From IMG/VR virus record IMGVR_UViG_3300020182_001907: a stretch of 64,000 nt of DNA. The stretch is one strand, 5' to 3'. Shown here in pieces: positions 14,298 to 42,765 of the stretch. Below the pieces are notes generated by a model. The model was not told the DNA's origin and made no database searches. It saw only the letters and a program-made list of their open reading frames with translations. How positions within the stretch are numbered: position 1 is the stretch's first letter; the number at the start of each line of letters is the position of its first letter. Source of the DNA: a virus. A program made the translations under genes and the position numbers.

Positions 14298-14305
14298 TAT
14301 AAATA
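14298..14305 (+). promoter_or_regulatory. Putative late promoter TATAAATA
   Basis: Exact T4-type late consensus in the gap upstream of 14337. Confidence 0.6.
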
Positions 14306-14336
14306 GTGATAACACACTTACATTACAGGTATCTTT

Positions 14337-14696
14337 ATGAGCGCAAAACTTTCAAAAGCATTAGAATTTGCTAATTATCGTGTTACTTTAAACAATCAAA
14401 AAGAAGCTCTGAGAGCTAAAGCACATTCTCTACTAAGTTACAGCATTAATGGCGGAACTTTTACCATAGACAGAACACTAATATCGTTTTGTAGAAATCT
14501 CATTGACGAACAGTTAGTTGAAGCTATACTGCTTGACGATTATAACAATCCTATTAAAATAGAAATTGTTGAATTTTACGAAGAAATTTTAAGCAGATAT
14601 AGCGAAACTACCAATGACTATTACGTAGAATACGAAAAAATAAAAAAGGCTAGAAGTGTAAACAAGGTAGTGGATATCAATGAAGATAATGTCTAA
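14337..14696 (+). CDS. Hypothetical phage protein
   Basis: 119-aa ORF, first gene after the late promoter, overlapping the next gene. Confidence 0.7.
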   Translation: MSAKLSKALEFANYRVTLNNQKEALRAKAHSLLSYSINGGTFTIDRTLISFCRNLIDEQLVEAILLDDYNNPIKIEIVEFYEEILSRYSETTNDYYVEYEKIKKARSVNKVVDINEDNV

Positions 14697-15594
14697 GACT
14701 AACACAATTGATCGAGGTATTATAATGTTCGCTCATAATAATACTGAAATAGATTATTTTCGTTTAGCAGTGGTAAATGCAACACTGATACAACGCTACT
14801 TAGGCTTAGAAAAACAAAATATTGCTGTGGTCACTGACTTACACTCTCTTGAACACGCCCAAAAACAATTGGGCAAAAGATTTATTAAAAACGCAATCGG
14901 GCATATAATTATAAACGAAAAAGATGTTAATTTTAAACATTCCAATGTCCGCACATACAAAGATACTAGTTTACATTCTAAACATTTAAGTTTTTATAAC
15001 AAAAACAGAAGTGATGCATACGATTTAAGTCCGTTCCAAGAAACCATACTAATAGATGCTGACTATCTTGTTTTAAGCGATTCTCTTAATCAGTGCTGGG
15101 GACATAATAACGAATTAATGATGAACTGGGAATATAAAGATGTATATAGTAGTAGAAAATATCCTTCGTTAACACGATTACATAACTTAGGAATTAGCAT
15201 GTATTGGGCTACTGTGGTGTATTTCCGCAAAACAGATTACTGCGAAACATTTTTCAATCTAGTCAAACAAGTCAGAGATAATAAAGACTACTATGGACAA
15301 CTGTTTAGAATTAATAATAAACTGTATAGAAACGATTTTAGTTTTAGTGTAGCAGCACATATATTAGGCGGATTCCAAGATAAAACATTGCCGCAGTTAC
15401 CTTTTCAGTTGTTCAAAACATTTGATACAGATGATGTTTATGAGGTGAACAGTGATTTAAGTTTAGTTCTTTGTTTAGAGAAACCAGATTCGCCTGGAGA
15501 TTTTATTGCCACTAAGTGGAAGGGAGTAGATGTGCACATAATGAACAAATGGGCGTTATCTAGGATATCAAACGGATTATTAGAATATGTCTAA
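14680..15594 (+). CDS. GT-A fold glycosyltransferase (GT8/nucleotide-diphospho-sugar transferase-like)
   Basis: SPFQETILIDADY (DxD), YWATVVYFRK, RNDFSFS and C-terminal HIMNK. Confidence 0.7.
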   Translation: MKIMSKTNTIDRGIIMFAHNNTEIDYFRLAVVNATLIQRYLGLEKQNIAVVTDLHSLEHAQKQLGKRFIKNAIGHIIINEKDVNFKHSNVRTYKDTSLHSKHLSFYNKNRSDAYDLSPFQETILIDADYLVLSDSLNQCWGHNNELMMNWEYKDVYSSRKYPSLTRLHNLGISMYWATVVYFRKTDYCETFFNLVKQVRDNKDYYGQLFRINNKLYRNDFSFSVAAHILGGFQDKTLPQLPFQLFKTFDTDDVYEVNSDLSLVLCLEKPDSPGDFIATKWKGVDVHIMNKWALSRISNGLLEYV

Positions 15595-16444
15595 AGGGTA
15601 TATTGTGATTGCTCAAAATAACGCCACTGTTGATTACTTACAACAGGCGTATGCCCTTGCATTAAATTTAAAGTTAACTCAGAGCGAAGTTAACAAGTTA
15701 ACTGTTTGTGTTGATAAGGCAACAAAACGATTAATAACAGATAAACACAGACAAGTATTTGATTGCATAGTAGATATTCCCTGGATCGATGATGCTGAAA
15801 ACAGTGATTGGAAAATACAAAACAAGTGGAAATATTATTACATGACACCTTACGATGAAACTGTAATATTAGATACAGACATGATATTTCCTGTAGATGT
15901 TAGTTTCTGGTGGGATGTACTCAGCGAACGAGACGTTTGGGCAAGTACTAGTGTGAGAAACTTTAAAAACGAAACTGTGACTAATGATTATTATCGAAAA
16001 GTGTTTACTAACAACCAGCTTCCTAACGTGTATACTGCATTTATGTATTTTAAAAAATCCGAAGTTGCCGGGGAGTTGTTTGGATTAGCAGAGATAATAT
16101 TCCAGCATTGGGAAAGATTTTTTTATCTTTATATACCTAATAATAAACCAGACAATGTTAGCGGCGATGTGGTTTTTGCACTAGCAATGAAACTGTTGGG
16201 CGTGGAAAACGAATGCACTAAGCCTAAACTAACTAATTTGCCTACATTTGTTCACATGAAAAGCAAATTACAGAATTCACCACAGTTAAACGATGAGTGG
16301 ACTGCTAGTTTACCAACCTATTATCATAGCTACAGAGATTTTAAAATAGGCAATTTCCAGCAACAGTTACCCTTCCATTATGTAAACAAAGAATGGATGA
16401 CACCTGCAAAGATTGCACAAATGGAAAACGATTATGACAGTTAA
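15587..16444 (+). CDS. GT-A fold glycosyltransferase (GT8-like), paralog of the preceding gene
   Basis: TPYDETVILDTDM (DxD), YTAFMYFKK, SGDVVFA, HMK and PFHYVNK. Confidence 0.7.
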   Translation: MSKGYIVIAQNNATVDYLQQAYALALNLKLTQSEVNKLTVCVDKATKRLITDKHRQVFDCIVDIPWIDDAENSDWKIQNKWKYYYMTPYDETVILDTDMIFPVDVSFWWDVLSERDVWASTSVRNFKNETVTNDYYRKVFTNNQLPNVYTAFMYFKKSEVAGELFGLAEIIFQHWERFFYLYIPNNKPDNVSGDVVFALAMKLLGVENECTKPKLTNLPTFVHMKSKLQNSPQLNDEWTASLPTYYHSYRDFKIGNFQQQLPFHYVNKEWMTPAKIAQMENDYDS

Positions 16445-17114
16445 TCAAGCTGCAATTGACCGTAAAAATAGATTTTTAGAAGAAAAAAAGTCTGTATCAT
16501 CTGTGAAAGAGTTAGTTAAGCATAAAGTTGAACAACCTTTTACTTTGTGGTTCAATAGTGAAGGTGATATATTATCGTTTTCGCAAAATGAAATAGCACC
16601 GAGGAACGGATGGTACACATATGATTTTGAACCAGAACAGCTATCAGTGTTATACAACGGAACACATAATTATATAGTTGTAAAAGATCAATTAGTTGAA
16701 AACAAATATTCTATACAACGAAAAGTTTTAGAGGAACAGCTAATTTCTAAAGAGGAATATTTCTTACATGAAGTTCCTTTTGTTCGCGTATCACCTAGAG
16801 GGATAAGACTAGAATTAACAAAAAATCATTTAAAAATTGCTCTCGACACTAACATTAAACAATTATACGAAGGCATTAGTCCAGTTAAAGCAACTGCAAA
16901 ATCGCAACGTACATTTGAATTTTATATAACTAAAACTGGCGATCCGCATATACTTTACGATCAAGGATCTGTGTACTTTAGTCAGTTATTAACTAGCGAC
17001 GTAGTTAAGATTAAATTAAATAAACAACTGCCAAAAGAAGTAAGTATATATACTAAAAAACTTTTTGAAAGTAAATATCGTTACAGTGTTACAGACAAAA
17101 GGAAAACGAATTAA
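16434..17114 (+). CDS. Hypothetical protein
   Basis: ORF coupled to both neighbours; no recognisable motif. Confidence 0.65.
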   Translation: MTVNQAAIDRKNRFLEEKKSVSSVKELVKHKVEQPFTLWFNSEGDILSFSQNEIAPRNGWYTYDFEPEQLSVLYNGTHNYIVVKDQLVENKYSIQRKVLEEQLISKEEYFLHEVPFVRVSPRGIRLELTKNHLKIALDTNIKQLYEGISPVKATAKSQRTFEFYITKTGDPHILYDQGSVYFSQLLTSDVVKIKLNKQLPKEVSIYTKKLFESKYRYSVTDKRKTN

Positions 17115-18118
17115 TGAAAGTAGAAGTAACAGAATTAGATATTGTGTATATTAGTTATGACGAACCTAACTGCGAAGAACACTGGTCTGATCTCTTAAAT
17201 AAAGTTCCATGGGCAAAACGTGTTCATGGTGTAAAAGGTTTTGATGCTGCACATAAACGTGCTGCACAAATAGCAGAAACAGACCGGTTCATCACAGTAG
17301 ACGGCGACAATATAGTAATGCCAGACTTTTTTGATCAAACGCTAGATATACCAGACACTGATATGTATGGTAATGAAATAAGCGAAAGCATCTTTAGTTG
17401 GAACGGAAGAAATTTGCTAAACGGATTAGTCTACGGCAACGGCGGACTTAAATGTTGGCCTACAGAATACACTAAAACTATTAGCACACATGAAGCAGCC
17501 ACCGACGGCGAAGGTATGGAGTTTTGTTGGAAGTTAAACTATATTCAACTTAACGACACGTTCTCAGAAGTTCATCAAACTGCAAGCCCATTCCAGGCGT
17601 TCCGCGCAGGATTTAGAGAAGGCGTTAAGATGAGTTTAGATCAAGGCAAGCGAGTACAAGCTAACGAGTTTAAGGAAAAAATCTGGTACGGCAACTATAA
17701 TAGATTACAAGTTTGGTGCAATATTGGTGATGATGTGGAAAATGGGGTGTGGGCTATATATGGTGCAAGGCTGGGCTGCAAAATGACAGTGCTGTCAGAT
17801 TGGGACACTAACAACATTGCAGATTACACTTGGTTTAAGGATTTCTTTTACAAGCAAGTCGCTCCTCAATTTAATGGCAACAAGCAAAATCAGTGTCCTC
17901 ATACCAAGCAGCAGTGGGATGATCATTTATTATATAAAGAGATAACAGCGTTAGGAAATGAAATAAACACTGAAGTTAACCAAATGTTGTTATTTGATCC
18001 AAATCCACTAGTGAGTAAGTTCTTTAAAACAACCTACACTGCTCCTAGGCGTTGGGGTGTTATGGTTAGGGAAAAACAGATTCAAGAATTACTTGAGAAA
18101 GGGTTAATAGGACATTAA
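17114..18118 (+). CDS. GT-A fold putative glycosyltransferase
   Basis: ISYDEP..VHGVKG.D.AH..AA..FITVDGDN (DxD)..YGNGGLK..AGFREGVK; homologous to the last repeat of 38715..42113. Confidence 0.65.
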   Translation: MKVEVTELDIVYISYDEPNCEEHWSDLLNKVPWAKRVHGVKGFDAAHKRAAQIAETDRFITVDGDNIVMPDFFDQTLDIPDTDMYGNEISESIFSWNGRNLLNGLVYGNGGLKCWPTEYTKTISTHEAATDGEGMEFCWKLNYIQLNDTFSEVHQTASPFQAFRAGFREGVKMSLDQGKRVQANEFKEKIWYGNYNRLQVWCNIGDDVENGVWAIYGARLGCKMTVLSDWDTNNIADYTWFKDFFYKQVAPQFNGNKQNQCPHTKQQWDDHLLYKEITALGNEINTEVNQMLLFDPNPLVSKFFKTTYTAPRRWGVMVREKQIQELLEKGLIGH

Positions 18119-18150
18119 CCATATAAAATTAACAAATGTTTTTATTCAGA

Positions 18151-18156
18151 TAAATA
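18151..18156 (+). promoter_or_regulatory. Putative late promoter (GATAAATATT) with AC-rich leader
   Basis: Intergenic, upstream of ugd. The context resembles the site at 31583. Confidence 0.55.
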
Positions 18157-18183
18157 TTAACACAATACACAAAGGATACACAG

Positions 18184-19524
18184 ATGGCCTCGATCGGATT
18201 TATTGGGGTAGGCAAGTTAGGACAAGCCTGCGCCGAGATGGTCGCTGAGATCCATGATGTTGTTGGTTATGATGTAGAACCCAGAGAGCCTGAAAATTTT
18301 ACAATGGTTTCAGACTTGCGGGATGCTGTAATAGGACAAGATATTGTTTTTATTGCTGCACCTACACCACACGACCCACAGTATGATGGACGAGCACCCA
18401 CCAGCCATTTACCCAACAAAGACTTTGACTATACTATAGTCAAGGATATCTTAAAACAGGTAAATGAAGTAGCAACACCTAAGCAATTAGTTGTACTAAT
18501 TAGCACAGTATTACCTGGCACTGTTCGCAGAGAACTAATACCTCTATTAACAAACGCCCGTTTCATATATAACCCTTACTTGATTGCCATGGGCACAGTC
18601 AAGTGGGATATGGTTAATCCAGAAATGGTTATGATTGGCACTGGAGACGGTTCAGAAACTGGTGATGCAAAACAGTTAGTAGATTTTTACAAAACAATCA
18701 TGCAAAACGATCCCAAGTATGTTGTAGGTACCTGGGATGAATGTGAATGCATCAAAGTGTTCTACAATACGTTTATTAGTGCTAAAGTTAGTTTGGTAAA
18801 CATGATACAAGACGTTGCTGAAAAGCAGGGTAATATAAATGCAGAAGTTGTATGCGATGCTCTTGCTAATGCTGATAGGCGTATTATGGGTCCGGGTTAC
18901 ATGAAGCCTGGTATGGGCGATGGTGGTGCTTGTCACCCCAGAGATAATATTGCGTTACGCTGGATGGCTGAGGAGTTGGATCTAGGTTATGATTTATTTG
19001 ATTCAGTAATGCGTAGCAGAGAAGTACAAGCAGAGAACATGGCAAAGCGTTTGGTACAACTAAGTTTACCTGCTAATATTGCGCCTATGCATTATATTCC
19101 TAAGCTACCAATTGTTATTGTGGGTAAAGCTTATAAACCTCTTGTGCCTTATGAAGCAGGTAGCAGCAGTATGCTAGTTGGCCATTATATAGAAAAATTA
19201 GGCGGCGAACTTTATTATTTAGATGAAGAATGTGGAGAAACACCACCTGAAAACATTTTAAATAACCCAGCAGTTTATTTAATGGCCCATAATCCTGAAG
19301 TAACTTATGGCGAACAATTAGATTTTGTAAAAAGTTGGTATGCAGGCAATCACGCCGTTACAAACTGTGATACTGCATTAACAGTCGAAACTGCAAATGG
19401 TTCAGAATTGACTTTCAGTACAGGAAGTGTTATACTAGATCCTTGGAGAAAAGTTCCAAACAATATCCCTGGGGTCGAAGTCATACATTACGGGAATACA
19501 AGGGGAGAGAGATCATGGCAATAG
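18184..19524 (+). CDS. ugd: UDP-glucose/GDP-mannose 6-dehydrogenase
   Basis: Rossmann GFIGVGKLG, APTP, STVLPGT, YNP, E..K.FYN.F, catalytic GGACHPRD and AYKP. Confidence 0.85.
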   Translation: MASIGFIGVGKLGQACAEMVAEIHDVVGYDVEPREPENFTMVSDLRDAVIGQDIVFIAAPTPHDPQYDGRAPTSHLPNKDFDYTIVKDILKQVNEVATPKQLVVLISTVLPGTVRRELIPLLTNARFIYNPYLIAMGTVKWDMVNPEMVMIGTGDGSETGDAKQLVDFYKTIMQNDPKYVVGTWDECECIKVFYNTFISAKVSLVNMIQDVAEKQGNINAEVVCDALANADRRIMGPGYMKPGMGDGGACHPRDNIALRWMAEELDLGYDLFDSVMRSREVQAENMAKRLVQLSLPANIAPMHYIPKLPIVIVGKAYKPLVPYEAGSSSMLVGHYIEKLGGELYYLDEECGETPPENILNNPAVYLMAHNPEVTYGEQLDFVKSWYAGNHAVTNCDTALTVETANGSELTFSTGSVILDPWRKVPNNIPGVEVIHYGNTRGERSWQ

Positions 19525-20132
19525 TAACAAAATATAAAATTAATACAGAGATACCCGGCTGGACTACTGAAAAAAAATTAAATATGTTGGCGGAAAAAGC
19601 CGCAGCAGTACCTGAAAATGGCACAATTGTCGAGCTAGGAACTTTTTGCGGAAGAAGTGCATACAGTCTTGGTAGTAATAAACTAGATTCTGTGAAACTG
19701 GTATGTGTAGATATGTTCCCTGACAACTTTATACAGATTCTGGCTAAAGACTTCCCTGGCATTGAGCATGGCTTCGGCAATTTAGATACTCCATATACAT
19801 GGCAAGCATGTTCTTACGCCCTCAAAGATGTTGTTAATCTAGAATATCTTAGAACAGTATTGCCCCTTCCTAGTTTTGTACAAATAGATTTGGAGGTTGA
19901 TTTATTGTTTATTGACACAGTACACACTGCTGAGGGAGCCCAAAGTGATATAGATCAATGGTTTCCTCTATTAACAGATAATGCAGTTGTTGTTTTTGAT
20001 GATTATTGTGATGTGTTTCCTGAATATTCAGAAATAATAGACAAGCACCTTCTTACTCTAGATGTACAAAACAGAGAAGTATACGAACATGCATTATGGG
20101 TACAGCTAGGAAAAAAAGAGGAAAACAAATAA
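19515..20132 (+). CDS. Class I SAM-dependent methyltransferase (Methyltransf_24-like)
   Basis: IVELGTFCGRS, DLLFIDTVH and VVFDDY. ATG at 19515 follows a GGAGAG RBS. Confidence 0.8.
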   Translation: MAIVTKYKINTEIPGWTTEKKLNMLAEKAAAVPENGTIVELGTFCGRSAYSLGSNKLDSVKLVCVDMFPDNFIQILAKDFPGIEHGFGNLDTPYTWQACSYALKDVVNLEYLRTVLPLPSFVQIDLEVDLLFIDTVHTAEGAQSDIDQWFPLLTDNAVVVFDDYCDVFPEYSEIIDKHLLTLDVQNREVYEHALWVQLGKKEENK

Positions 20133-20133
20133 C

Positions 20134-21684
20134 ATGGCATATAAAAAAGGTATAACAAAATTTCACGGGGCTGGCTCTCAACAAACATTTGATGCTTTAA
20201 GTGAAGTGAGCGATTCCTTTTGTTTAGCAAAATGGCTGCAGGTTACATTGCATTTACAAAATGGGCACAACCATAGTTGCCACCATCCCGTTACACATCG
20301 GGCAGACGAAAATGAAATTGCAAATAATCCTAATGCGCTACACAATACTCTGTACAAAAAAGCCAAGCAAGCACAAATGTTAACAGGAGAACGGCCTACA
20401 GAATGCCAATACTGCTGGAACATAGAAGACATAGGGCAAGACAGTGATGACACGAGTTTTGCAAGTGACAGGATTCACAAGTCAGGCGATATTACTTGGG
20501 CCGGTACAAACCAAATACAGCCGTTGTTAGACAAAATAAAACGGGGCGAAAAAATAAATCCGCGTTATGTTGAAATTTCATTCAGTAATGTGTGTAATTT
20601 TAAATGCAGTTATTGTTCTCCTGTACACAGCAGTCTATGGACTAGCGAAATCAAAAACAAAGGTCCATATGAGTTGCTGTCTAATCCAGGACATAATAAT
20701 CTAGAATGGTTAGAGAAAGAAGATAAACTACCTATACACCACAAAGATTATAATCCATATGTAGAAGCATTTTGGGAATGGTGGCCTGATCTTGTTCAAG
20801 ATCTAGTGTCGTTTAGAATTACTGGCGGCGAGCCATTACTTGAAGAAAATACGTTTAAAGCGATCAAGATGTTACAAGAATCTGAAACTGGATCGCTAAA
20901 AGAGATGAGTATTAACAGCAATGCGTGTGTACCAGACGAAGTTATAGATCGGTATATTCTAGAAATGAATAAATTATTAGATTCTGGAAAAGTTGAAATT
21001 TCTCGGTTCTTTACAAGCTGCGATACCCATGGCGAGCAAGCTGAATATATCAGGCACGGATTTGATTATAAGAGGTGGCTTAAAAATGTAGACAAAATTC
21101 TAACAGAAATACCTAAATCTAGAGTGACAATTATGTGCACTGCTAATCTCATGAGCTTACCAAGATTTCATTTATTTCTCCAAGACGTACATGCGTTAAA
21201 GAAAAAACACTGGAATAATCCACTTAAAGGGCGTGACCAAGGATTAACATTAGATATACCTATATTGCGTCATCCCGCTCATCAAAGTGTAGCTATACTA
21301 CCTAGCACATATGCAGACATGTTAACTCCTAGTTTAGCCTATATGACCAGCCACTGGGTGGATGGACAGAACCGTGATGCCTGGACAAAAAGAACTACTA
21401 ACAAATTCTCACCTGATCTTTTACAAGATATACAAGAAGATGATAAAATGTTTACTGATTTAGAAATGCAGAGGTTTCAAAGACTGATAAAATCAGTTGA
21501 GGAAGATGTAAATGTTAACGAAGGTGTTAATTCTAAAACTTCAATGATTGATTTTTATTTGTTTGTAAACGAACATGATAGAAGACGTGGTACAGATTTC
21601 AAAAAAACTTTTCCAGAACTTATGGATTTTTATAGGTTATGTGAAGAAGAACATAATAAAAGAATTATGGTGAGGAATATATAA
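20134..21684 (+). CDS. Radical SAM enzyme with N-terminal twitch-like Fe-S region
   Basis: CNFKCSYC and ITGGEP, plus N-terminal FCLAKW..SCHH..ECQYCW. Confidence 0.85.
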   Translation: MAYKKGITKFHGAGSQQTFDALSEVSDSFCLAKWLQVTLHLQNGHNHSCHHPVTHRADENEIANNPNALHNTLYKKAKQAQMLTGERPTECQYCWNIEDIGQDSDDTSFASDRIHKSGDITWAGTNQIQPLLDKIKRGEKINPRYVEISFSNVCNFKCSYCSPVHSSLWTSEIKNKGPYELLSNPGHNNLEWLEKEDKLPIHHKDYNPYVEAFWEWWPDLVQDLVSFRITGGEPLLEENTFKAIKMLQESETGSLKEMSINSNACVPDEVIDRYILEMNKLLDSGKVEISRFFTSCDTHGEQAEYIRHGFDYKRWLKNVDKILTEIPKSRVTIMCTANLMSLPRFHLFLQDVHALKKKHWNNPLKGRDQGLTLDIPILRHPAHQSVAILPSTYADMLTPSLAYMTSHWVDGQNRDAWTKRTTNKFSPDLLQDIQEDDKMFTDLEMQRFQRLIKSVEEDVNVNEGVNSKTSMIDFYLFVNEHDRRRGTDFKKTFPELMDFYRLCEEEHNKRIMVRNI

Positions 21685-23201
21685 TGTCAGGGTACGACCA
21701 AGAATTAAAAGATTTTAAAAAAGTATTAGATGGCGTGAGTCCTAGTTTTTGCAGTGCCAAATGGTTGCAAACAACGTTGCATTTACAAAATGGAAGAACA
21801 CATAGTTGCCACCATCCCTCACCGCATGCAATCCCTATACAGGAATTGGAGAATTACGGACCCACAGCATTACATAACACAAAGTACAAGAAAGAGCAGC
21901 GCCGTCAGATGTTAGCTGGTGAGAGACCTAAAGAGTGTCAATACTGTTGGAATATTGAAGATTTGCCAGGGGACCATACTAGTGATAGACCACGTAAAAG
22001 TATGGAACCTTGGGCTAAAGATAAGTTAGATAGTATTATTGCTAGCGATTCTGATGCCAACATATTGCCTACCTATGTAGAAGTTAGTTTTAGTAATGCG
22101 TGTAATTTTAAATGTAGTTATTGCTCCCCTGTGCATAGCAGTCAATGGGTTAAAGAAATACGTGATCATGGACCATATAATTTAGGAAGTAGGATGCACA
22201 ATGGGTTAGAATATTTTGAGGAGACTGGGCAACTACCTTCACCTGACGCTGACACGTATATACTCCATTTTCGGAGTTGGTTGCTGAATACTCTAGGACC
22301 AAGTAGATCATTACAAGTATTGAGAATTACAGGAGGAGAGCCTACTCAAACAAAAGAGTTCGCTAAACTATGGGATATACTTTATCAGGTTCCACAACCT
22401 CAAATGGAGTTATGCATAAACACTAATTTAGGCATGGATAAAAAAGGTTTGGAAGATTTTGCAGACAAAATTAATCTCGCTTATCATCTCAATCTAGTTA
22501 AAAGTGTGACAATACACACCAGTTGCGATGCAGCTGGCGCTCAAGCAGAATACACAAGACATGGTTTAAATTATAATCAGTGGTTAGAGAATTGCCAGGT
22601 TCTTTTAAATACTTTTCCAAATTTAACAATAAACATAATGTGCACTACAAATATATTCTCTTTAACTAGTATGGATCGTTTTTTAGCCGACGTACTAGCA
22701 TTAAAATTATGTTATCATACTACTGAACGGACAGTACCAGTAACAATAGATTTCAGTATATTACGCTGGCCCGGCCATCAATCTCTTTCTATTATGCCAT
22801 ATGACTATGCCGATATGTTTAATACTAGTTTAGCATTTATGGAGAAGTGGAAAGATGATACTGAGTTAGTTGGTGGCAGCGAATCGATAGAGGCTTACGG
22901 AGTACACTATAATAAAACTCATAGTAGACAGTTAAATAAAGGCTTCTATGATTTTGAAATAAGCAAATTTAAAAGAATGATGGAGTTTACCAGGAACCCC
23001 CCTGATCTCAATGAGGGTGTAGTTAGTATCCAGGGGGCGTGGAGAGATTTTTATTTGTTTGTAGACGAACATGATAAAAGACGTGGAACAGATTTTAAAA
23101 AAACTTTTCCTGAGCTAGTAGAATTTTACAATCTCGCTAAAGCTACACATAAAAATAATGTGCATGTGATTTTAACTAATCATAGTACAACATACGAGTA
23201 G
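21684..23201 (+). CDS. Radical SAM enzyme with N-terminal twitch-like region (tandem paralog)
   Basis: CNFKCSYC, ITGGEP and FCSAKW..SCHH..ECQYCW. Shares the C-terminal EHD.RRGTDFKKTFPEL with the preceding gene. Confidence 0.85.
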   Translation: MSGYDQELKDFKKVLDGVSPSFCSAKWLQTTLHLQNGRTHSCHHPSPHAIPIQELENYGPTALHNTKYKKEQRRQMLAGERPKECQYCWNIEDLPGDHTSDRPRKSMEPWAKDKLDSIIASDSDANILPTYVEVSFSNACNFKCSYCSPVHSSQWVKEIRDHGPYNLGSRMHNGLEYFEETGQLPSPDADTYILHFRSWLLNTLGPSRSLQVLRITGGEPTQTKEFAKLWDILYQVPQPQMELCINTNLGMDKKGLEDFADKINLAYHLNLVKSVTIHTSCDAAGAQAEYTRHGLNYNQWLENCQVLLNTFPNLTINIMCTTNIFSLTSMDRFLADVLALKLCYHTTERTVPVTIDFSILRWPGHQSLSIMPYDYADMFNTSLAFMEKWKDDTELVGGSESIEAYGVHYNKTHSRQLNKGFYDFEISKFKRMMEFTRNPPDLNEGVVSIQGAWRDFYLFVDEHDKRRGTDFKKTFPELVEFYNLAKATHKNNVHVILTNHSTTYE

Positions 23202-25802: not shown

Positions 25803-25805
25803 ACT

Positions 25806-33534: not shown

Positions 33535-33956
33535 AATCTAGAAAATACAATCACACACTAGGAGACCTAATAGATAGGTTATCAATTGTTCAACTTAAAG
33601 AAGTGTTTATACCAGAGTTTAAAAATGAATATGCAGATGAAATTAACGACATTGTGCATGACATACAGCTAATTTTAGATGAAGAAAATCCTAAACTTGA
33701 TGCGAAAACCCTTAGAGCTATCATAGTATGTGCTCAAATGAATTTACATATTTGGCATAATGAGTCTAATTACCGACGAGGAATCAAGGAGGGTAATAAT
33801 CTAGAACTAACGCATGGATTAAATGGTATTCGTAATACCAGTAAAAATGTAATACAAGAAGCAGTGGGCGGTAGAAAAGATTATAAAGTAGACTGCTTGG
33901 CAGCTGATTGGAAAGATTGGTCAGTTAGTTGGGATGAACAAACAGGAGATAGATAG
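33531..33956 (+). CDS. Hypothetical helical protein (DUF6165-like)
   Basis: TLGDLIDRLSI..LK...N..IWH.E...R motif. ATGA overlap with the upstream gene. Confidence 0.5.
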   Translation: MKSRKYNHTLGDLIDRLSIVQLKEVFIPEFKNEYADEINDIVHDIQLILDEENPKLDAKTLRAIIVCAQMNLHIWHNESNYRRGIKEGNNLELTHGLNGIRNTSKNVIQEAVGGRKDYKVDCLAADWKDWSVSWDEQTGDR

Positions 33957-35329: not shown

Positions 35330-35378
35330 ACATAATTTTTTTGAGCAGAAAGCCCGCCCTACTAGCAGAACGGATTAG
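35304..35378 (+). CDS. Possible 24-aa small ORF (MNESWQDLKHNFFEQKARPTSRTD)
   Basis: AAAGGAAAG RBS before the ATG; fills the gap before 35382. Confidence 0.3.
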   Translation: MNESWQDLKHNFFEQKARPTSRTD

Positions 35379-35381
35379 CGT

Positions 35382-35774
35382 ATGAAAATATTTGTTAATG
35401 GTACCTTTGATATTTTACATCCTGGACATATGGCATTATTTGAATACGCAAAATCGCTAGGTAAGGTGAGAGTAGCAATAGATTCTGATGCACGAATAAA
35501 GTTAATGAAGGGCGATAGTAGGCCTATTAACAGTGTGGAAGTTAGGAAACGCATGTTAGAATGCATAAGATATATTGATGAAGTTAGTGTTTTCGGCAGC
35601 GATCAAGAACTGATTGACACGGTAAAGACTTATGCACCTGATATAATGATAGTGGGTTCAGATTATAAACACAAAACAGTTATTGGAAGTGAACATGCAA
35701 AAAAATTGTTTTTCTTTGAAAGAGACGATAGATATTCTTCAACTAGCATCATCCAAAATATTAATAATAGGTGA
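35382..35774 (+). CDS. Nucleotidyltransferase, RfaE domain II/HldC-like
   Basis: NGTFDILHPGH, KG..RPIN, GSDY and YSSTSII. Confidence 0.85.
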   Translation: MKIFVNGTFDILHPGHMALFEYAKSLGKVRVAIDSDARIKLMKGDSRPINSVEVRKRMLECIRYIDEVSVFGSDQELIDTVKTYAPDIMIVGSDYKHKTVIGSEHAKKLFFFERDDRYSSTSIIQNINNR

Positions 35775-36492
35775 CGGCTGTAAAGATATCTACCACTACG
35801 GCGATGTAAATAAGATCAGCCAGGAAGCCCCTGTGCCTATTTTTAAGCAAGTAAAAACGGATTTTAAATTAGGCATGAGTTACAATGTGTGTAGAAATTT
35901 TAATGCTCTTGGATCAAACACAGTACTGCAAAGTTATGTTGCAGAGAATAAACATCGATACATAGATAGAAAAAGTAATCAGCAAGTATACAGAGTTGAC
36001 GAATCTTTAGCAACACCTCGATCTGAATTTGATTGTAGTGGAGACTTTGATGCAGTAGTGATTAGCGATTATGACAAAGGCGCTTTAAGCTATGAAGATA
36101 TCGAAGAGATAATTACATCCGCGAATGCACCAGTTTTTATTGATACAAAAAAATCTGATCTTGCAAGATTTAAGGATTGTATAGTAAAAATAAATGAGAT
36201 AGAATACAATGATAGTGTTAGCTTGCCAGAGAATTTAATTGTTACTAGAGGCAGCAAAGACGTAATTGTTCTAGATCAAGGTAAAGTTACAAGTACGCAT
36301 CCTGTTAATTCAGTAGAGTTATATGATACTACAGGAGCAGGAGATAGCTTTTTAGCCGCATTTGTGTTATACTATATAGCTACAGATCATTTAGTAGACT
36401 CAATAAACTTTGCTGTTAGAAGTAGCCAAATAAGTATAACTAAACGTGGGGTATATGCACCTACTCTGGAGGAAATATGTCAACTAGACTAA
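35695..36492 (+). CDS. PfkB-family sugar kinase, RfaE domain I/HldA-like (start uncertain)
   Basis: ILIIGD...D.Y.YG....ISQEAPVP, ISDYDKG and DTTGAGDSF. Confidence 0.8.
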   Translation: MQKNCFSLKETIDILQLASSKILIIGDGCKDIYHYGDVNKISQEAPVPIFKQVKTDFKLGMSYNVCRNFNALGSNTVLQSYVAENKHRYIDRKSNQQVYRVDESLATPRSEFDCSGDFDAVVISDYDKGALSYEDIEEIITSANAPVFIDTKKSDLARFKDCIVKINEIEYNDSVSLPENLIVTRGSKDVIVLDQGKVTSTHPVNSVELYDTTGAGDSFLAAFVLYYIATDHLVDSINFAVRSSQISITKRGVYAPTLEEICQLD

Positions 36493-36836
36493 GTGGTGAC
36501 GTGCAAAAAACATGGGGGTCAGAAACAATTTGGTGTTCTAACGATTTGTATTGTGGCAAAATGCTTAATTTTAACACAGGACATAGTTTCAGTATGCACT
36601 TCCACAAGGAAAAAGATGAGACATGGTATGTGCTTAGTGGTAAATTCCAGTTAACAACTATTAATACAACAAATGCTGAACAACTAGTTGAAACACTACA
36701 CGCAGGAGATGTAAAACATATACCGCCTATGCTGCCTCATCAGTTACTGTGTTTAGAAGCTGGCACCGTTATTGAAGTTAGCACACCTGATAGCGTAGAA
36801 GACAACTACCGAATGTGGAGAGGACAACCATCATGA
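36477..36836 (+). CDS. Cupin (mannose-6-phosphate isomerase/sugar isomerase-like)
   Basis: K.WG.E, SMHFH..KDETWYV..G, H.L and EVSTPD...DNYR. Confidence 0.75.
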   Translation: MSTRLSGDVQKTWGSETIWCSNDLYCGKMLNFNTGHSFSMHFHKEKDETWYVLSGKFQLTTINTTNAEQLVETLHAGDVKHIPPMLPHQLLCLEAGTVIEVSTPDSVEDNYRMWRGQPS

Positions 36837-37198
36837 AATACATAATTGACATTGACGGAACTATATGTTATACCGATAAAAGTGAATATACTAAATCTAA
36901 GCCTATAAGTAGTAATATAGACCAAGTTAACAATTTGTATGACCAAGGACATGAGATTGTTTACTGGACTGCACGTGGAGGCAATAGCGGTATCGATCAT
37001 TCCGAACTAACATTAAAGCAATTGAGTGATTGGGGATGTAAATATCACTCAGTGATGTTTAACAAACCTACTTACGATGTGTGGGTTGACGACAAAGCTT
37101 CTTGGATTTTTTCTGAAACACCAAAGGCGCAGTTTAGTGACGAATTAAAAGAAAGATTAAAAAAATTAAGAGAACGGGATCCGTTTATATACAGATGA
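36833..37198 (+). CDS. HAD-superfamily phosphatase (capsule-biosynthesis type)
   Basis: DIDGTI, WTARG and KP.YD.WVDDK. Confidence 0.8.
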   Translation: MKYIIDIDGTICYTDKSEYTKSKPISSNIDQVNNLYDQGHEIVYWTARGGNSGIDHSELTLKQLSDWGCKYHSVMFNKPTYDVWVDDKASWIFSETPKAQFSDELKERLKKLRERDPFIYR

Positions 37199-38691
37199 AT
37201 AGAATATTAGGTATTAGCAGTATGTTCCATGATGCAGCAGTATGCGTTATAGAAGATGGAGAAATATTGTTTGCGAGTCATGCTGAACGTTATAGTAAAG
37301 AAAAGAATGATCCTTTTCTTAACGAACAACTAATGACTGAAGCTCTCAGTTATGGTCTACCTGATGTCATAGTGCTGCATGAAAAAACTTGGGCAAAGCG
37401 TTTGAGGAATATTGCTGGCAGACAATGGAGCGGATTGCGTGAACCTAGTGCAGAATCTTTTATTAAAACAAGCATGCCGTTTTTAAATGATGTACCAATT
37501 AAAAGCTATTGGCATCACGAAACACACGCAGCAGCTGGTGTACTAACAAGCAATTTAGATAGTGCTGCTGTTATGGTTATTGACGCTATTGGAGAATTTG
37601 ATACTGCTAGTATATGGCATTGGAAAGATAATAAATTAACAAAGAAACACAGTATAAAATTCCCTCACAGCTTAGGGTTGTTTTATAGCGCAGTAACACA
37701 TTTTGTCGGATTAAAACCCATGGAGGATGAATACATTCTAATGGGAATGGCAGCATATGGGAATGATGTTGTTGCTGCTGATATCGAAAGTGCAATGACA
37801 GATGTTTACTTTAATAATAAACAAGGCCCTATTAAATTTAGAGAAAATTTACAACGTGGGTTACCACATAAAAGCCATTTTAATCAATATGATAATATGG
37901 ACATAGCATTAGCTGCACAAAACATTACAGAAAAACACATACTGGACTATGCTAACATAGCAAAAAATATAACTGGAGAAAACAATCTAGTATTTATGGG
38001 AGGTGTTGCTCTTAACTGTGTTGCTAACAGTCGACTGTGTTCTTTGTTTGAAAATGTACACATAATGCCTAATCCTGGTGATGCAGGTAGTGCATTAGGT
38101 GCCGCAGCATTAGAATATTTTAATCAAACTGGAAATAAAGTAAACTGGAAAAGCCCTTACTTAGGAACAAACATACCAGGAAAGTATCCTGTGAATAAAG
38201 CAATGGGTGCACTAACATCAAATAAAATTTTTGGTATAGCAAACGGCCGGGCGGAGTTTGGACCAAGAGCGTTAGGTAATCGCAGTTTGATGGCAGATCC
38301 CAGAGGAGAACAAATTAAACAAAGAGTTAACGTAATTAAGAAGCGCCAACAATTTCGCCCTTTTGCTCCTGTTGTTTTAGAACAATACGCTAATAAATAT
38401 TTTGATATGCCAGTAGCATCAAGTCCTTATATGCAATTTGTTGCTAAATGTAAATTCCCTAATATGTATCCTGCTATTGTTCATGCAGACGGTTCAAGCC
38501 GTGTGCAGACAGTTAACAAGTCCCAACATCCTGGATTGTACCAACTGCTAATGGAATTTTACTCTTCAACAGGATGCCCTATGTTGCTGAACACTAGTTT
38601 AAATATTAAAGGACAGCCAATAATTAACGACGAGGATGACGCTAAAGCATGGACATTACAATATGGTAGGCCTGTATTTACACATGATTAA
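37195..38691 (+). CDS. Carbamoyltransferase, NodU/CmcH family
   Basis: HDAAV, ERYS..K, HH..HAA, DAIGE, EY.LMGMAAYG, GGVALNC.AN, EFGPRALGNRS, RPFAP and LLNTSLN..G.PI. Confidence 0.9.
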   Translation: MNRILGISSMFHDAAVCVIEDGEILFASHAERYSKEKNDPFLNEQLMTEALSYGLPDVIVLHEKTWAKRLRNIAGRQWSGLREPSAESFIKTSMPFLNDVPIKSYWHHETHAAAGVLTSNLDSAAVMVIDAIGEFDTASIWHWKDNKLTKKHSIKFPHSLGLFYSAVTHFVGLKPMEDEYILMGMAAYGNDVVAADIESAMTDVYFNNKQGPIKFRENLQRGLPHKSHFNQYDNMDIALAAQNITEKHILDYANIAKNITGENNLVFMGGVALNCVANSRLCSLFENVHIMPNPGDAGSALGAAALEYFNQTGNKVNWKSPYLGTNIPGKYPVNKAMGALTSNKIFGIANGRAEFGPRALGNRSLMADPRGEQIKQRVNVIKKRQQFRPFAPVVLEQYANKYFDMPVASSPYMQFVAKCKFPNMYPAIVHADGSSRVQTVNKSQHPGLYQLLMEFYSSTGCPMLLNTSLNIKGQPIINDEDDAKAWTLQYGRPVFTHD

Positions 38692-38703
38692 GATACCGCT
38701 TAA

Positions 38704-38709
38704 TAAATA
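38704..38709 (+). promoter_or_regulatory. Putative late promoter (ATAAATA) 5 nt before the ATG
   Basis: The motif sits directly upstream of 38715 with no SD sequence, suggesting a near-leaderless mRNA. Confidence 0.5.
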
Positions 38710-38714
38710 TTCCT

Positions 38715-41700
38715 ATGTTTGATATATATTATACTGGTACAAATTCCTTACTGCATAGCACATATCCCTTTGCAAAAAAATACACGGAAGATGCTAATCC
38801 ATTGACAAAAATGTATTGGCTAGTAGACTCTGACATAGAAATTGTTGATCATAGTATTTTTGAATACCGTCCTCCTGCACATCAGGAACAATATGAACAT
38901 ATCTGGAAATGGAATAGTAAAAATTACGGCGGTGTACGGCTGCTACCTAAAAAATCTCCTAAAGGTGTTGTAGAGATAAACAAAGTTGTATGTAAAAAAA
39001 CTATTAGGATACTTTTTGATTGTGATGATCCAGACGAATATTTTGAGAATAATACAGCAGAGTACGTATGGTGTGTAGATTCTAGATATAAGTTGCCAGA
39101 AGGTGGTTTAGAATGGGCACCTGATAACACTGAACTTCCTTATATACATAATTTCCATTTAAAAAATCAACTTCAAGACTATTATCCTGAAGATGAAGGT
39201 GGGGTGACGCTGTATCCTAGAGACTGGAAAAAGCTGACAAAAAAATATCACGGGATTATGCATTTGGATAGCAGATTGTATCCTGTAATGTATGTTAGTG
39301 ATCCTTCAGATTACTCGCAACGTAATATATACAATCATGATTATGTGTGGTTAATAGACAAAAACTATAAGATAAATGAAGAAACCCTTCAATGGACTCC
39401 TAGTGTGGGAGAGCCTGAACAGTACATACATAATTTTCGAATGCCACAACAACTAAAAGAAAAATATCCACGAGCAATGGGAGGCATTTACTTAGTACCT
39501 AAAAACTGGATGGATGCTCAGATAAAAATACACAAAGGTTGCCATGTTGAAAATGAGGAATATGATACATTTTTCACTAATAAACCGTTTAATGCAAGTA
39601 CATATGAATTCTATGCAAACCGTAGCCTAACCGATTGGTTTTGGATTGTTGACTTAGAATACAATTTTAACGGTAAACTAAGCTTTGTTCCTGACAAACA
39701 CGATGGTAAAGTAACCCACGTTTTTCACTTTCCTGGGCAATTGCCTGCCCGCTATCCAGACAACGTAGCTGACCTTCCTCCTGACGATACTCGTAATGGC
39801 GGAATAAGATTAGTACACAAACAATTTGATATAACTAAAAACAAAGTGTGCAGAGATATATTACCTATAATTTATGACGTATTTTTTGTACATCACACAG
39901 AATTAAATAATTACACCAAGTATGAAAAACTATCTAATACAAGTATGTTTTATCTGGTAGACGAGGAGTTAGTGTTCGACATTGACTCACTGAATTATGT
40001 TCCTGAACCTTGGGCGTATCAATACGTACACACATGGCATTTACCTCCTCAGCTGGAATATAGATATGATAACGAAGGAGTTGGTCCCATAAAACTTGTA
40101 CCAAATACTTTTGTTAATGATGGTCACTATAAGTTAATTGAAGGAGATTTGTTTATTGGTAACTATGAAAATCTATCTAAAATTACATATCCGGTAATCA
40201 GGTCAAAAACCGTGTCAGATTTATTTGATATAGATGAGGATATACCTGGGCTATGTTGGCTTGTTGACGATAATTATATTATAGATAATGATAAGTTAAG
40301 CAAGATATGGAATCCTTCTAGCGATACTATTAACTATATACACAACTTTAAACTTGCTAATCAGTTAACTGAACTGTATCCAGATGAGATGGGGGGTATA
40401 TACTGGCTTCCCGATAACTGGAGAGAATTAAAAAATACAAAAAATACATTAGTAATACACGGATCGCAAGCTTGGCAAGAAACTAATATTGATGCCGAAT
40501 TCCCAATATTTTATAACGAAGAAGAAGCTAATAATAAGTGTAAAGATGAAAGATTCTACTGGTTAATTGACCCTGATGTAACAGTAGTAGACGACTTTGA
40601 TTTTAATTTCCAACCAGAATTCTGGGATCATGATAAAACACATATTTGGCAAAAATGTAATCCAGTGACTAATTCAGTTTTTGATTACGGGGGTATACAA
40701 TTAGTAAGTCGACATGCCGACAAAAAGAAACGACCAAAACATATACTAGAACCTGGCTGTTACCAGAAACAGATTCCTATTCACACTTTAACAAATGAAA
40801 CTTCACTAGCAAAGCAAATGTTTGACTTTAGTGTCCAAGCAAAAAATAACGGATTTAAGATGTTTTGGGTATTAGATAGTAGTGTTGTATTACATGACGA
40901 ATGGGACTTTAGTTATTACCCATCGCAATGGGAGCAAAACTTTGTGCATGTTTTTCAAAATACTAATGGTGAGTATCGAGATGTGCGGTTAGTTCCGACT
41001 AATTTTATAGAAGATAATGCTGATTTAACACTAAGTGATTTTACATACAATAATCTAGAAAACTTAAAATATATAGATATTATTGCTACTACGATACGAG
41101 AATGGCCAGTGATAAAGTTAAACGTAATTAATGTAGAGATTTTCTTGCAAGAGTTGCAGTCATACAGAAACCAAGGAATTTCTTATGTATGGACTGTTTC
41201 TTCCTATGTTGATGTAAATGAACAGTTAATAAAAGATAGTTTCCAGCCAGCAGGAGTAGATAACGCAAAAATTCATATATTCCAAGATTTTTCTCCTCAT
41301 ACAGGTCGTTTACACAGTTATGGTAGGGTTATGCTGTGGCCAACAGATGGAAATTACAGCAATCTTACTAGCAAACAAATCGAAACAGCAAGTATAAAAG
41401 ATAAAAAATACGTTAAAGAAGTTGGATCTACATATAAAAAGTTTGATGTTGCCTTAATTACTTACCGTAACGAGAACGCTGATGAAAGATTTGCAAAGCT
41501 AAAAGAAAAAGCACCACACGCAATACATATAAAAGATGTTAAAGGTATTTTTGAAGCACATAAAGCAGCAGCAGGCCAGTCCACTACGGAGATGTTGTGG
41601 GTAGTAGACGGCGATGCTGAGATAGTAGATGACTTTAATTTTGATTACATACCAGATATATATGATACTAACACTGTACACGTCTATACCACTATTAACC

Positions 41701-42113
41701 CAATCACAGGTGACAAATACGGCTATGGCGGAGTAAAACTATTTAATAGAAATCAAATTATGAAAGTTGATAATTGGGGATTAGATTTTACCACAGGCCT
41801 CAGCAAAGATTTTAAATTAATGGACGAAGTAAGTAATATCACTGCTTTTAATACCAGTCCATTAAGCACATGGCGTAGTGCATTTAGAGAAGTAGTAAAA
41901 TTAACATTAAAGGGCGACAATGAAAGCTTCCAGCGTTTGTTTATATGGTCTGAACCTGAGATAGAAGATGCAGATTATATACAATATGCAAAAGACGGGG
42001 CAGAGCAGGGTTATAATTTTGTAATAGAAAATTCAAACAAACCTGAAAAACTACAGATAATAAACGATTTTGATGAATTAGAAAAGATGTTTAATGCCAA
42101 ATATGAAACTTAA
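38715..42113 (+). CDS. Poly-GT-A repeat protein (ten repeats; the last resembles an intact glycosyltransferase)
   Basis: Ten units of W(L/V/I)(V/I)D...(Y/V)(I/V)H.(F/W)...GG(V/I).L.P. The final unit has VKG...AH..AA, WVVDGDA, YGYGGVKL and AFRE..KL. Confidence 0.7.
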   Translation: MFDIYYTGTNSLLHSTYPFAKKYTEDANPLTKMYWLVDSDIEIVDHSIFEYRPPAHQEQYEHIWKWNSKNYGGVRLLPKKSPKGVVEINKVVCKKTIRILFDCDDPDEYFENNTAEYVWCVDSRYKLPEGGLEWAPDNTELPYIHNFHLKNQLQDYYPEDEGGVTLYPRDWKKLTKKYHGIMHLDSRLYPVMYVSDPSDYSQRNIYNHDYVWLIDKNYKINEETLQWTPSVGEPEQYIHNFRMPQQLKEKYPRAMGGIYLVPKNWMDAQIKIHKGCHVENEEYDTFFTNKPFNASTYEFYANRSLTDWFWIVDLEYNFNGKLSFVPDKHDGKVTHVFHFPGQLPARYPDNVADLPPDDTRNGGIRLVHKQFDITKNKVCRDILPIIYDVFFVHHTELNNYTKYEKLSNTSMFYLVDEELVFDIDSLNYVPEPWAYQYVHTWHLPPQLEYRYDNEGVGPIKLVPNTFVNDGHYKLIEGDLFIGNYENLSKITYPVIRSKTVSDLFDIDEDIPGLCWLVDDNYIIDNDKLSKIWNPSSDTINYIHNFKLANQLTELYPDEMGGIYWLPDNWRELKNTKNTLVIHGSQAWQETNIDAEFPIFYNEEEANNKCKDERFYWLIDPDVTVVDDFDFNFQPEFWDHDKTHIWQKCNPVTNSVFDYGGIQLVSRHADKKKRPKHILEPGCYQKQIPIHTLTNETSLAKQMFDFSVQAKNNGFKMFWVLDSSVVLHDEWDFSYYPSQWEQNFVHVFQNTNGEYRDVRLVPTNFIEDNADLTLSDFTYNNLENLKYIDIIATTIREWPVIKLNVINVEIFLQELQSYRNQGISYVWTVSSYVDVNEQLIKDSFQPAGVDNAKIHIFQDFSPHTGRLHSYGRVMLWPTDGNYSNLTSKQIETASIKDKKYVKEVGSTYKKFDVALITYRNENADERFAKLKEKAPHAIHIKDVKGIFEAHKAAAGQSTTEMLWVVDGDAEIVDDFNFDYIPDIYDTNTVHVYTTINPITGDKYGYGGVKLFNRNQIMKVDNWGLDFTTGLSKDFKLMDEVSNITAFNTSPLSTWRSAFREVVKLTLKGDNESFQRLFIWSEPEIEDADYIQYAKDGAEQGYNFVIENSNKPEKLQIINDFDELEKMFNAKYET

Positions 42114-42765
42114 TACCTGGTCCGAAGTAGAAAAATTTACTGATAAAAATCTAAGAATATCACCCACCTATCTTTCAGAAGTTGGAACAGGAAAGTATCC
42201 TTGTGAAGCTTTTAGTTTGGGCCAGCTTGCAAGTAAAGCGTGGCTAATACGTTGTATTAATCAATATGTTAATCCTTTACAAGCTAATGTAACCGTTGCT
42301 ATTTTAGGCAGCTGGATAGGTGTATTAGTAGAATTTTTACATCAAAGTTTTCTTATTGATCGAATCTATGGCATAGATCTAGACGAATTCAGTATAAAAT
42401 TAAGCGAGGAACTTAATAAAAAACATGTCAACAATTCATGGAAATATAAAGGTGTAGTAGCAGATGTTTTGACACTGTCTACAAACAATATGGAATTTCT
42501 TACTGATAACGAATTAATAAATGTTAAACCTGAATGGATTATAAACGCCAGTTGCGAACATATGGGCTCTCAATGGTTTAATACTGCGGATTCAGATCAG
42601 TTAATTATTATGCAAACAAATAACTATCATAGATGGCATGAGCACACAAACACTGTGGACAGTATAACAGACATGCAAGATAAATATCCATTATCTAATA
42701 CCTTATATGCAGGAGAATTAGATATGCCATTATACACTAGGTACATGCAAATAGGATATAAGTAA
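42103..42765 (+). CDS. Class I SAM-dependent methyltransferase-like protein
   Basis: GQLASK.W, AILGSWIG, GIDLD, INASCEH, H.N and R.M.IG.K. Confidence 0.65.
   Translation: MKLNTWSEVEKFTDKNLRISPTYLSEVGTGKYPCEAFSLGQLASKAWLIRCINQYVNPLQANVTVAILGSWIGVLVEFLHQSFLIDRIYGIDLDEFSIKLSEELNKKHVNNSWKYKGVVADVLTLSTNNMEFLTDNELINVKPEWIINASCEHMGSQWFNTADSDQLIIMQTNNYHRWHEHTNTVDSITDMQDKYPLSNTLYAGELDMPLYTRYMQIGYK

Follow-up and report, generated by a model that had tools for sequence, protein, structure and literature searches.

A candidate virion glycosylation island behind the tail fibre genes of a putative marine T4-like jumbo phage

Introduction

Sugar islands and virion glycosylation have both been described in phages before, as have large sugar clusters of marine T4-like phages. 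Here we describe a block of 29 open reading frames (ORFs) lying directly behind the tail fibre genes on the plus strand of IMG/VR virus record IMGVR_UViG_3300020182_001907, analysed as one stretch of 64,000 nucleotides (hereafter, the window). What is new in this island is a fibre-linked variant, predicted to be late-wired and to make its own sugars, with a virus-only GT-B glycosyltransferase (GT) family, a twitch radical S-adenosylmethionine (SAM) family and a multi-module GT-A family. The reading that we consider the best, at a confidence somewhat short of even, is that the island modifies virion proteins, in particular the fibres, with glycans.

As far as the literature found goes, virion glycosylation in phages is known only for mycobacteriophages (Freeman et al. 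2023, Cell Host Microbe, as reported in the citing papers PMC12619734 and PMC12801897). According to these papers, soluble phage GTs encoded among structural genes have been proposed or demonstrated to attach sugars to virion proteins in the cytoplasm; the phages use one to a few GTs and host sugar nucleotides, and the C-termini of capsid and tail-tube subunits are modified. The GT genes described here are similarly embedded in the structural-gene region. In contrast, however, the island comprises 29 genes including its own nucleoside diphosphate (NDP)-sugar pathways, radical SAM enzymes and a carbamoyltransferase, stands beside the fibre genes of a T4-like jumbo phage, and is known from its genes alone.

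The "lipopolysaccharide (LPS) gene clusters" of the marine T4-like cyanophages P-SSM2, S-SSM7, S-SCSM2R and Bellamy resemble the island in extending over tens of kilobases of NDP-sugar, GT and carbamoyltransferase genes, but they lie in host-like metabolic surroundings close to hli, phoH or tRNA genes, whereas the island lies behind fibre genes under late-type boxes. In Bellamy a 15-kb island, placed among hli, pstS and other host-like genes, encodes a Ugd of 62% identity together with heptose-route enzymes and a carbamoyltransferase. The clusters of P-SSM2 and S-SSM7 were published with function unknown (PMC3037559), and that of S-SCSM2R was read as host-surface or DNA modification (PMC12801897). 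Mimivirus fibril glycosylation is a further parallel, as the virus encodes rare-sugar synthesis and GTs independently of its host, and R699 and several giant-virus GTs are among the structural matches of the island proteins; Mimivirus is nevertheless a eukaryotic virus with other sugars and enzymes, and the likeness is one of strategy and fold only. Phage DNA glycan biosynthetic gene clusters (BGCs), as described by Pyle et al. 2024, likewise have GT-A and GT-B enzymes related to LPS enzymes, count heptose among their sugars and lie in some cases near structural genes, but there they depend on a neighbouring 5mYOX or ThyA-type enzyme, none of which was found in the island.

Results

Gene layout and promoter classes

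The 29 plus-strand ORFs at 14337-42765 mostly overlap or abut, only six gaps of at least 10 nt lying within or heading the block, which agrees with the approximately 28 co-oriented, mostly overlapping genes described in a first-pass annotation of the same DNA. The island is situated between the fibre genes and a convergent minus-strand block of replication, nucleotide and deazaguanine genes, which it meets at 42765/42905, and not among host-like metabolic genes of the hli, phoH or tRNA kind.

That annotation had also reported ATAAATA late-type motifs in the larger gaps and no sigma70 consensus there, and both observations were confirmed. The motif is depleted in the window (15 copies against 33.7 +/- 5.2 expected), and five of its eight plus-strand copies fall inside the 367 nt of plus-strand gaps, at 11427, 14299, 18150, 31582 and 38703. 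Boxes are thereby present in five of the seven plus-strand gaps of at least 10 nt, including the gap before fibre gene 11463, and the full TATAAATA occurs only at 14298. No TTGACA-N16-18-TATAAT pair was found in these box-bearing gaps. Conversely, the minus-strand replication/deazaguanine block has TTGACA-N17-TATAAT near-consensus promoters in at least five gaps (44089-57030) and no ATAAATA box in any minus-strand gap, and it is this sigma70 block, not the island, that holds the evident DNA-modification genes (QueE-like and others).

The boxes recur in relatives: 36 of 82 loci retain the GATAAATA box ahead of Ugd, and the homologue of 14337 is headed by a terminator hairpin and then TATAAATA. 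In three relatives gp23 directly follows gp22 and for that reason has no box of its own; one neighbouring gene there has a terminator and GATAAATA. We take the ATAAATA boxes to be of the T4 and cyanomyovirus late-promoter type. The data support a predicted late-type promoter class common to the island and the fibre genes, which sets both apart from the sigma70 block of replication and DNA-modification genes. In loci L009-L019 a small conserved inverted repeat (GTACT...AGTAC) was also observed approximately 45-58 nt upstream of the Ugd start, between the GATAAATA box and an AGGAG ribosome-binding site.

The IMG/VR relatives found through the island genes are T4-like with a gp23 match and 340-365 kb in length, one of them being rated complete with terminal repeats, and on these grounds the source virus is taken to be an uncultured marine T4-like jumbo phage. 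Tailed-phage signs in the window itself comprise PHROG matches to tail fibre, HNH, ATPase, exonuclease and QueE-like proteins, the ATPase being 45% identical to those of PA5oct-group jumbo phages and 37% to that of Atu_ph07. No tRNA was found within the 64-kb window, and its megablast search against catalogued phages returned no match.

Conservation of the island in relatives

The cassette of five genes heading the island (14337, GT8, GT8, 16413 and 17114) stands directly downstream of fibre-gene homologues in every relative examined, namely collinear IMG/VR relatives, rearranged contigs, phage contigs binned into metagenome-assembled genomes (MAGs) and the cultured Ralstonia phage RsoM2USA. 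On the rearranged contigs it still follows the fibre genes while the Ugd block is differently oriented relative to its neighbours. In RsoM2USA, ORF355 to ORF347 encode, in order, a fibre, a small protein, GT8, GT8, one further product (x), GT-A, a twitch radical SAM, GT-A and a methyltransferase-like protein, and the cassette is co-oriented with and directly after the virion genes ORF361, 359 and 356 confirmed by mass spectrometry (MS). ORF361 (2,541 aa) was detected in virions by MS (PMC8504454); the giant ORF 2..11392 of the window occupies the same position, and no sequence similarity between the two was detectable. Synteny with tail genes in related phages, which had been put forward as a check, is thus seen for the first cassette across distant phages including a cultured one. 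Beyond RsoM2USA, the cassette of GT8, GT-A and N-terminal-twitch radical SAM and the multi-module GT were matched in no other catalogued phage.

The same order of fibre, GT cassette and radical SAM was observed on four contigs filed in bacterial MAGs of Neomarinimicrobiota, Gammaproteobacteria, Bdellovibrionales and Haliscomenobacter (L101, PBPT01000016.1, 335 kb; L097; L098; L141), which are probably mis-binned jumbo-phage contigs.

The frame that follows (Ugd, radical SAM, GT-B, carbamoyltransferase, multi-GT and methyltransferase-like genes) is widespread in viral contigs, Ugd having at least 598 matching stretches in IMG/VR. For the NDP-sugar genes (27269-37198), by contrast, 88 loci yielded few homologues or none, and the viral-contig relatives hold no full-length counterpart. 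Pfam analysis of 84 ORFs downstream of Ugd in 12 relatives recognised 28 radical SAM, 16 SPASM and 5 DUF6071 matches, and none of the epimerase, RmlC and nucleotidyltransferase families. The view of the island as one coherent glycan pathway leaves out of account that the NDP-sugar genes have no counterpart in the relatives examined and that the frame is filled there with radical SAM/SPASM arrays. Such arrays, of four to nine genes in tandem downstream of Ugd in place of the classical NDP-sugar genes, were observed in L016, L018, L019, L025, L008 and L003. Twelve radical SAM genes (12) in one marine genome of T4-like type are on record (PMC5332604).

Glycosyltransferase-fold proteins

Seven GT-fold proteins are encoded in the island: two GT8/glycogenin-like, one GT-A, three GT-B paralogues and one multi-module GT-A-derived protein. 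The roughly seven GT-like proteins anticipated from the sequence were recovered by profiles, AlphaFold2 (AF2) models and homology, although none of them matched a Pfam GT family even at E up to 10. Altogether twelve island proteins were blank in Pfam, these seven among them. The profile of 14680 and 15587 with their relatives (A3) matched glycogenin-1 and -2 over the N-terminal half (E 2e-8 to 1e-6), and in the alignment D98 and H264 are invariant and D96 is present in at least 90% of sequences, representing the DxD and the metal-binding His. By profile and motif, both proteins are predicted GT8 enzymes, i.e. glycogenin/LgtC-like retaining GT-A enzymes.

The products of 23215, 25806 and 29123 are paralogues of approximately 490 aa from a virus-only family with many uncultured-phage relatives in BFVD. 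Their alignment-based AF2 model (pLDDT 87, pTM 0.87) adopts a GT-B fold with Foldseek matches to OtsA, LmbT, VldE and GtfA, and the VIA Z scores of T4 beta-glucosyltransferase (BGT, 11.4), GtfC (11.0) and FucT (10.9) are effectively tied; the C-terminal Glu/Lys is kept. In BFVD entry A0A6J5TB28 (788 aa), from another phage, a Ugd N-terminal domain is fused to this virus-only family, a Rosetta-stone arrangement that links donor synthesis to these GTs.

The model of 38715 (pLDDT 81) matches the multi-GT-A proteins K4CP, Mimivirus R699 and LH3. On self-comparison the protein resolves into approximately ten related modules of about 95-110 aa each, derived from the DxD half of a GT-A domain and mostly without an intact D-x-D. 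Residues ~905-1045 form the only module modelled as a full GT-A (GT-A/nucleotidyltransferase fold, Z ~10), and the C-terminal module carries an invariant D-x-D (D965/D967). The number of modules varies among homologues, the open frames of which span 359-1,957 aa, with more than 436 relatives of 1,092-1,953 aa among the matches listed. The GT-A protein 17114 is homologous to the last, C-terminal module of 38715. Full-length homologues of 17114 (38-41% identity) were also observed on chromosomes of cultured marine Alphaproteobacteria (L107-L128: Sulfitobacter, Roseibium, Ruegeria, Tateyamaria, Cribrihabitans); that of Roseibium album shares an operon of three genes with a GT4 and a 145-aa protein. 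The rest of the cassette is missing there, and the surroundings contained no flagellin or pilin and no acceptor clue.

Single-protein sequence searches against PDB found nothing for 38715, 25806 and 21684, profile searches with alignments A1, A2, A5 and A6 gave no match, and a genome scan with the single protein 17114 was likewise empty. No family emerged from profile searches for the products of 14337 and 16413, the former (119 aa) also being without a fold match.

Donor synthesis and tailoring

Enzyme names were taken from Pfam and NCBIfam scans, in which the NCBIfam scores lay below the curated equivalog cut-offs (except for the generic TIGR00125 domain match of 35382), so that substrate names are not established. 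The family matches bear out the inventory listed in the first-pass annotation, i.e. Ugd, RmlC, three extended short-chain dehydrogenases/reductases (SDRs; 30567, 31613, 32602), heptose-pathway enzymes, a thiamine pyrophosphate (TPP) enzyme, three radical SAM proteins and a carbamoyltransferase. The Ugd-like NDP-sugar dehydrogenase 18184 keeps the GxGxxG and GGACHPRD cysteine motifs, and the radical SAM proteins 20134, 21684 and 24690 are of the N-terminal twitch type (NF033640), each with CxxxCxxC and four N-terminal Cys. The TPP enzyme is split into E1-alpha-like (28488) and E1-beta-like (33934) products, and the heptose route is represented by 35382 (HldE domain II-like) and 35683 (HldE domain I-like). 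The RmlC-like epimerase 27269, the cupin 36477, the HAD protein 36815 (a weak match) and the NodU-type carbamoyltransferase 37195 complete the set. Two other assignments stood in part. Of the two proposed methyltransferases, 19443 matched Methyltransf_24 while 42094 reached class I methyltransferase folds only weakly (PDB profile, E 0.01), and the two proposed SGNH proteins, 27814 and 34469, have the GCSFT(F/W)G and D(Y/H)H motifs with little family support (one Pfam GDSL match, E 0.14).

All island products look soluble from their predicted hydropathy. No Kyte-Doolittle segment fitting a membrane protein was seen in any of the 29, the only peaks being in the TPP (28488) and SDR (32602) proteins plus a borderline segment in 42094, and no flippase (Wzx), polymerase (Wzy), ABC exporter or priming phosphoglycosyltransferase (WecA/WbaP type) appeared in the Pfam/NCBIfam scans of the 29 ORFs. 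The predicted absence of flippase, polymerase, priming transferase and membrane protein is therefore upheld by family scans and by the hydropathy check of every product. The island does not match a Wzx/Wzy- or ABC-dependent O-antigen or capsule locus, as no initiating phosphoglycosyltransferase, flippase, polymerase or exporter was found among the 29 ORFs.

Table 1. Features of the island and of its upstream neighbours in the window.
Feature	Coordinates	Strand	Evidence and remarks
Giant adhesin-like virion protein candidate	2..11392	+	>3,796 aa, 5' end outside window; subtilase S8, Big_9, cadherin-like, FG-GAP (Pfam); candidate acceptor
Late-type box (11427) and two fibre-like genes (11463-13301, 13301-14272)	11427..14272	+	PHROG tail fibre matches; candidate acceptors
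TATAAATA late-type promoter box heading the GT cassette	14298..14305	+	Terminator and TATAAATA at the same place in relatives
Fibre-linked five-gene cassette: 14337 (119 aa), GT8/glycogenin-like 14680 and 15587, 16413 (233 aa), GT-A 17114	14337..18118	+	Profile, synteny
GATAAATA box and Ugd-like NDP-sugar 6-dehydrogenase	18150..19524	+	Family scans, motifs, box conservation
Methyltransf_24 19443, twitch radical SAM 20134 and 21684, GT-B 23215, radical SAM 24690, GT-B 25806	19443..27272	+	Family scans, AF2 model
Classical NDP-sugar insert, part 1: RmlC-like, SGNH-like, E1-alpha-like TPP, GT-B (29123), three SDRs, 173-aa protein	27269..37198	+	Box at 31582
Classical NDP-sugar insert, part 2: E1-beta-like, SGNH-like, HldE-II-like nucleotidyltransferase, HldE-I-like kinase, cupin, HAD phosphatase-like	27269..37198	+	
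NodU/CmcH-type carbamoyltransferase	37195..38691	+	Pfam/NCBIfam; 59-61% identity in relatives, 46% in RsoM2USA
AATAAATA box and 1,132-aa protein of ~ten tandem GT-A-derived modules	38703..42113	+	Model, self-comparison
223-aa class I methyltransferase-like protein, last gene of block	42094..42765	+	Weak profile match; adjoins multi-GT gene in relatives and RsoM2USA ORF347

Discussion

The island could represent a late-transcribed, wholly cytoplasmic glyco-modification system. It would make its own activated sugars, namely a UDP-uronic-acid-type product and an HldE-route heptose-like NDP-sugar, along with derivatives of the 6-deoxy and possibly the two-carbon-branched type. Tailoring would proceed by carbamoylation, methylation, acyl handling and radical SAM chemistry, and the seven GT-fold proteins would transfer the sugars to virion proteins during assembly, the most probable acceptors being the fibre and adhesin proteins encoded just upstream. 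We infer a virion acceptor from the observed gene content, folds, promoter classes and synteny: the promoter class, a cassette welded to fibre genes both in marine phages and in a soil phage that infects another host, an all-soluble machinery and intact catalytic motifs argue for it, as does the placement of the evident DNA-modification genes in the early block instead.

Several observations weigh against glycosylation of the virion. The late timing of the island is a well-grounded inference drawn from motifs only, namely the boxes in plus-strand gaps, their conservation in relatives and their match to the T4 type. The acceptor search covered the three adjacent structural proteins of the window, the capsid and tube genes lying outside it. 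Their suspected richness in Ser, Thr and Asn was found (30-31%, against 15-24% in single island proteins and approximately 19% pooled over the other window proteins), yet such richness is ordinary for Ig-domain adhesins and fibres, and no acceptor signature accompanied it: mucin-like Ser/Thr tracts were lacking in the three proteins apart from one 20-aa stretch, S-[G/A]-x-T and related motifs were not enriched, and N-x-S/T was enriched marginally (86 against 69 expected). The fold matches of the GTs favour no particular target: for the GT-B paralogues a DNA-modifying enzyme, T4 BGT, comes first, in a tie with GtfC and FucT. The Ugd-containing sugar island of cyanophage Bellamy is not among tail genes, comparable marine T4-like clusters have been published with a different reading that is likewise a proposal, and the radical SAM/SPASM arrays of the relatives are not explained by glycosylation alone. 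Hence, of the proposal that a soluble late pathway glycosylates the virion, the island itself, its solubility, its late-type promoters and its fibre synteny stand; the expected acceptor signature was not found in the three adjacent structural proteins. As a side observation on the giant ORF 2-11392, its residues 801-1200 are almost without Lys and Arg, and the level stays low (1-2%) to about residue 2200.

The conventional "LPS gene cluster" reading, under which large clusters were published for P-SSM2, S-SSM7 and S-SCSM2R (PMC3037559, PMC12801897), would make intermediates of the host, either undecaprenyl-linked or of the lipid A-core, the target of the soluble GTs and NDP-sugar enzymes; the flippase and ligase of the host would export the altered glycan so as to mask receptors or alter the surface. 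GT8, HldE-type and RmlC-type proteins are typical LPS enzymes and peripheral GTs require no transmembrane helix. Such envelope remodelling is nonetheless unlikely: with late-type promoters and a position welded behind fibre genes, export would have little time ahead of lysis, and family scans and hydropathy revealed neither a priming transferase nor a ligase or transporter in the island. In addition, the phages that share the cassette infect widely different hosts (marine relatives and Ralstonia), which would not have the same envelope acceptors. Hypermodification of DNA, in which a modified base would receive a mono- to oligosaccharide from the GTs ahead of packaging, we regard as very unlikely. 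Phage GT-A and GT-B enzymes do place hexose, N-acetylhexosamine and heptose mono- to trisaccharides on 5-hydroxymethylcytosine, and some of these BGCs neighbour phage structural genes, according to Pyle et al. (bioRxiv 10.1101/2023.12.21.572611), a resemblance to which the Z of 11.4 for T4 BGT can be added. The family scans, however, found no 5mYOX/TET, ThyA-type hydroxymethylase or DNA methyltransferase in the island; three near-complete relatives gave no Tet_JBP match, control genomes being equally silent, and the ThyA-family match in two of the three scores like an ordinary thymidylate synthase. Moreover, the deazaguanine genes stand with a GT of their own in the early block, and no known DNA glycan calls for as many as seven GTs and several sugar pathways.

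A further alternative is a radical SAM-driven maturation whose late product, for release or packaging, would be either a small molecule of nucleoside or aminoglycoside type that carries glycosyl and carbamoyl groups, or a peptide or protein modified in the manner of ribosomally synthesised and post-translationally modified peptides (thioether, epimerisation, S- or O-glycosylation). The joint occurrence of Ugd, radical SAM and carbamoyltransferase genes in nucleoside-antibiotic pathways would fit it. Other points in its favour are the 28 radical SAM and 16 SPASM-bearing ORFs among the 84 behind Ugd in relatives, the twitch radical SAM within the fibre-linked cassette of RsoM2USA, and GT-A matches that include two peptide S-glycosyltransferases, SunS and ThuS (Z 9-9.6). 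Those two are tied with many other GT-A enzymes, however, the family is nearly virus-only with no characterised member, and nothing recognisable as a precursor peptide, protease, exporter or immunity gene was seen, although no systematic precursor-peptide search was made; we judge this explanation improbable. Lastly, a non-catalytic, carbohydrate-binding role in the virion or its assembly is highly improbable for the proteins with GT folds, the 1,132-aa protein of ten modules in particular. The loss of D-x-D in most modules of 38715, their freely varying number in relatives and the location of the gene in a late structural region would fit such a role, but catalytic motifs are intact in the terminal module and in every stand-alone GT, full NDP-sugar pathways would be senseless without transferases, and none of RsoM2USA ORF347-354 is among the ten abundant virion bands.

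Glycosylation of virion proteins can also be framed more broadly, though this version is doubtful, as a late post-translational modification factory. The fibre-welded cassette (GT8 pair, GT-A, twitch radical SAM and methyltransferase-like protein) would prime the fibres or adhesins, upon which a swappable set of modules (here rare heptose-like and branched sugars; radical SAM/SPASM arrays in relatives), with the multi-module GT-A of variable length, would build a strain-specific glycoconjugate. If so, jumbo-phage "serotypes" could tune adsorption or evade defences, and no earlier virion glycosylation system would be known either from outside actinobacteriophages or with sugar synthesis of its own.

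Marine T4-like sugar clusters have stood unexplained since 2005-2010 as "LPS genes" or "stuffer DNA", and the island offers a testable alternative. As its core cassette is tied to fibre genes and late-type promoters and is common to the cultured RsoM2USA, the question is open to bench work. Were virion proteins the acceptors, the reading of "auxiliary metabolic" sugar genes in ocean viromes would change, and phage host-range biology would gain a glycan layer. Three enzyme families are uncharacterised in their own right: the virus-only GT-B proteins, the arrayed twitch radical SAM enzymes and the GT-A protein of ten modules.

A minor observation concerns ORF 33435-33956 within the NDP-sugar insert, which has a TTG start and a 100-nt overlap with the preceding SDR gene. 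An internal ATG (residue 33), overlapping the stop of 32602-33534, is the likelier start, and weak DUF7164 and DUF4254 matches were the only ones obtained for its product.

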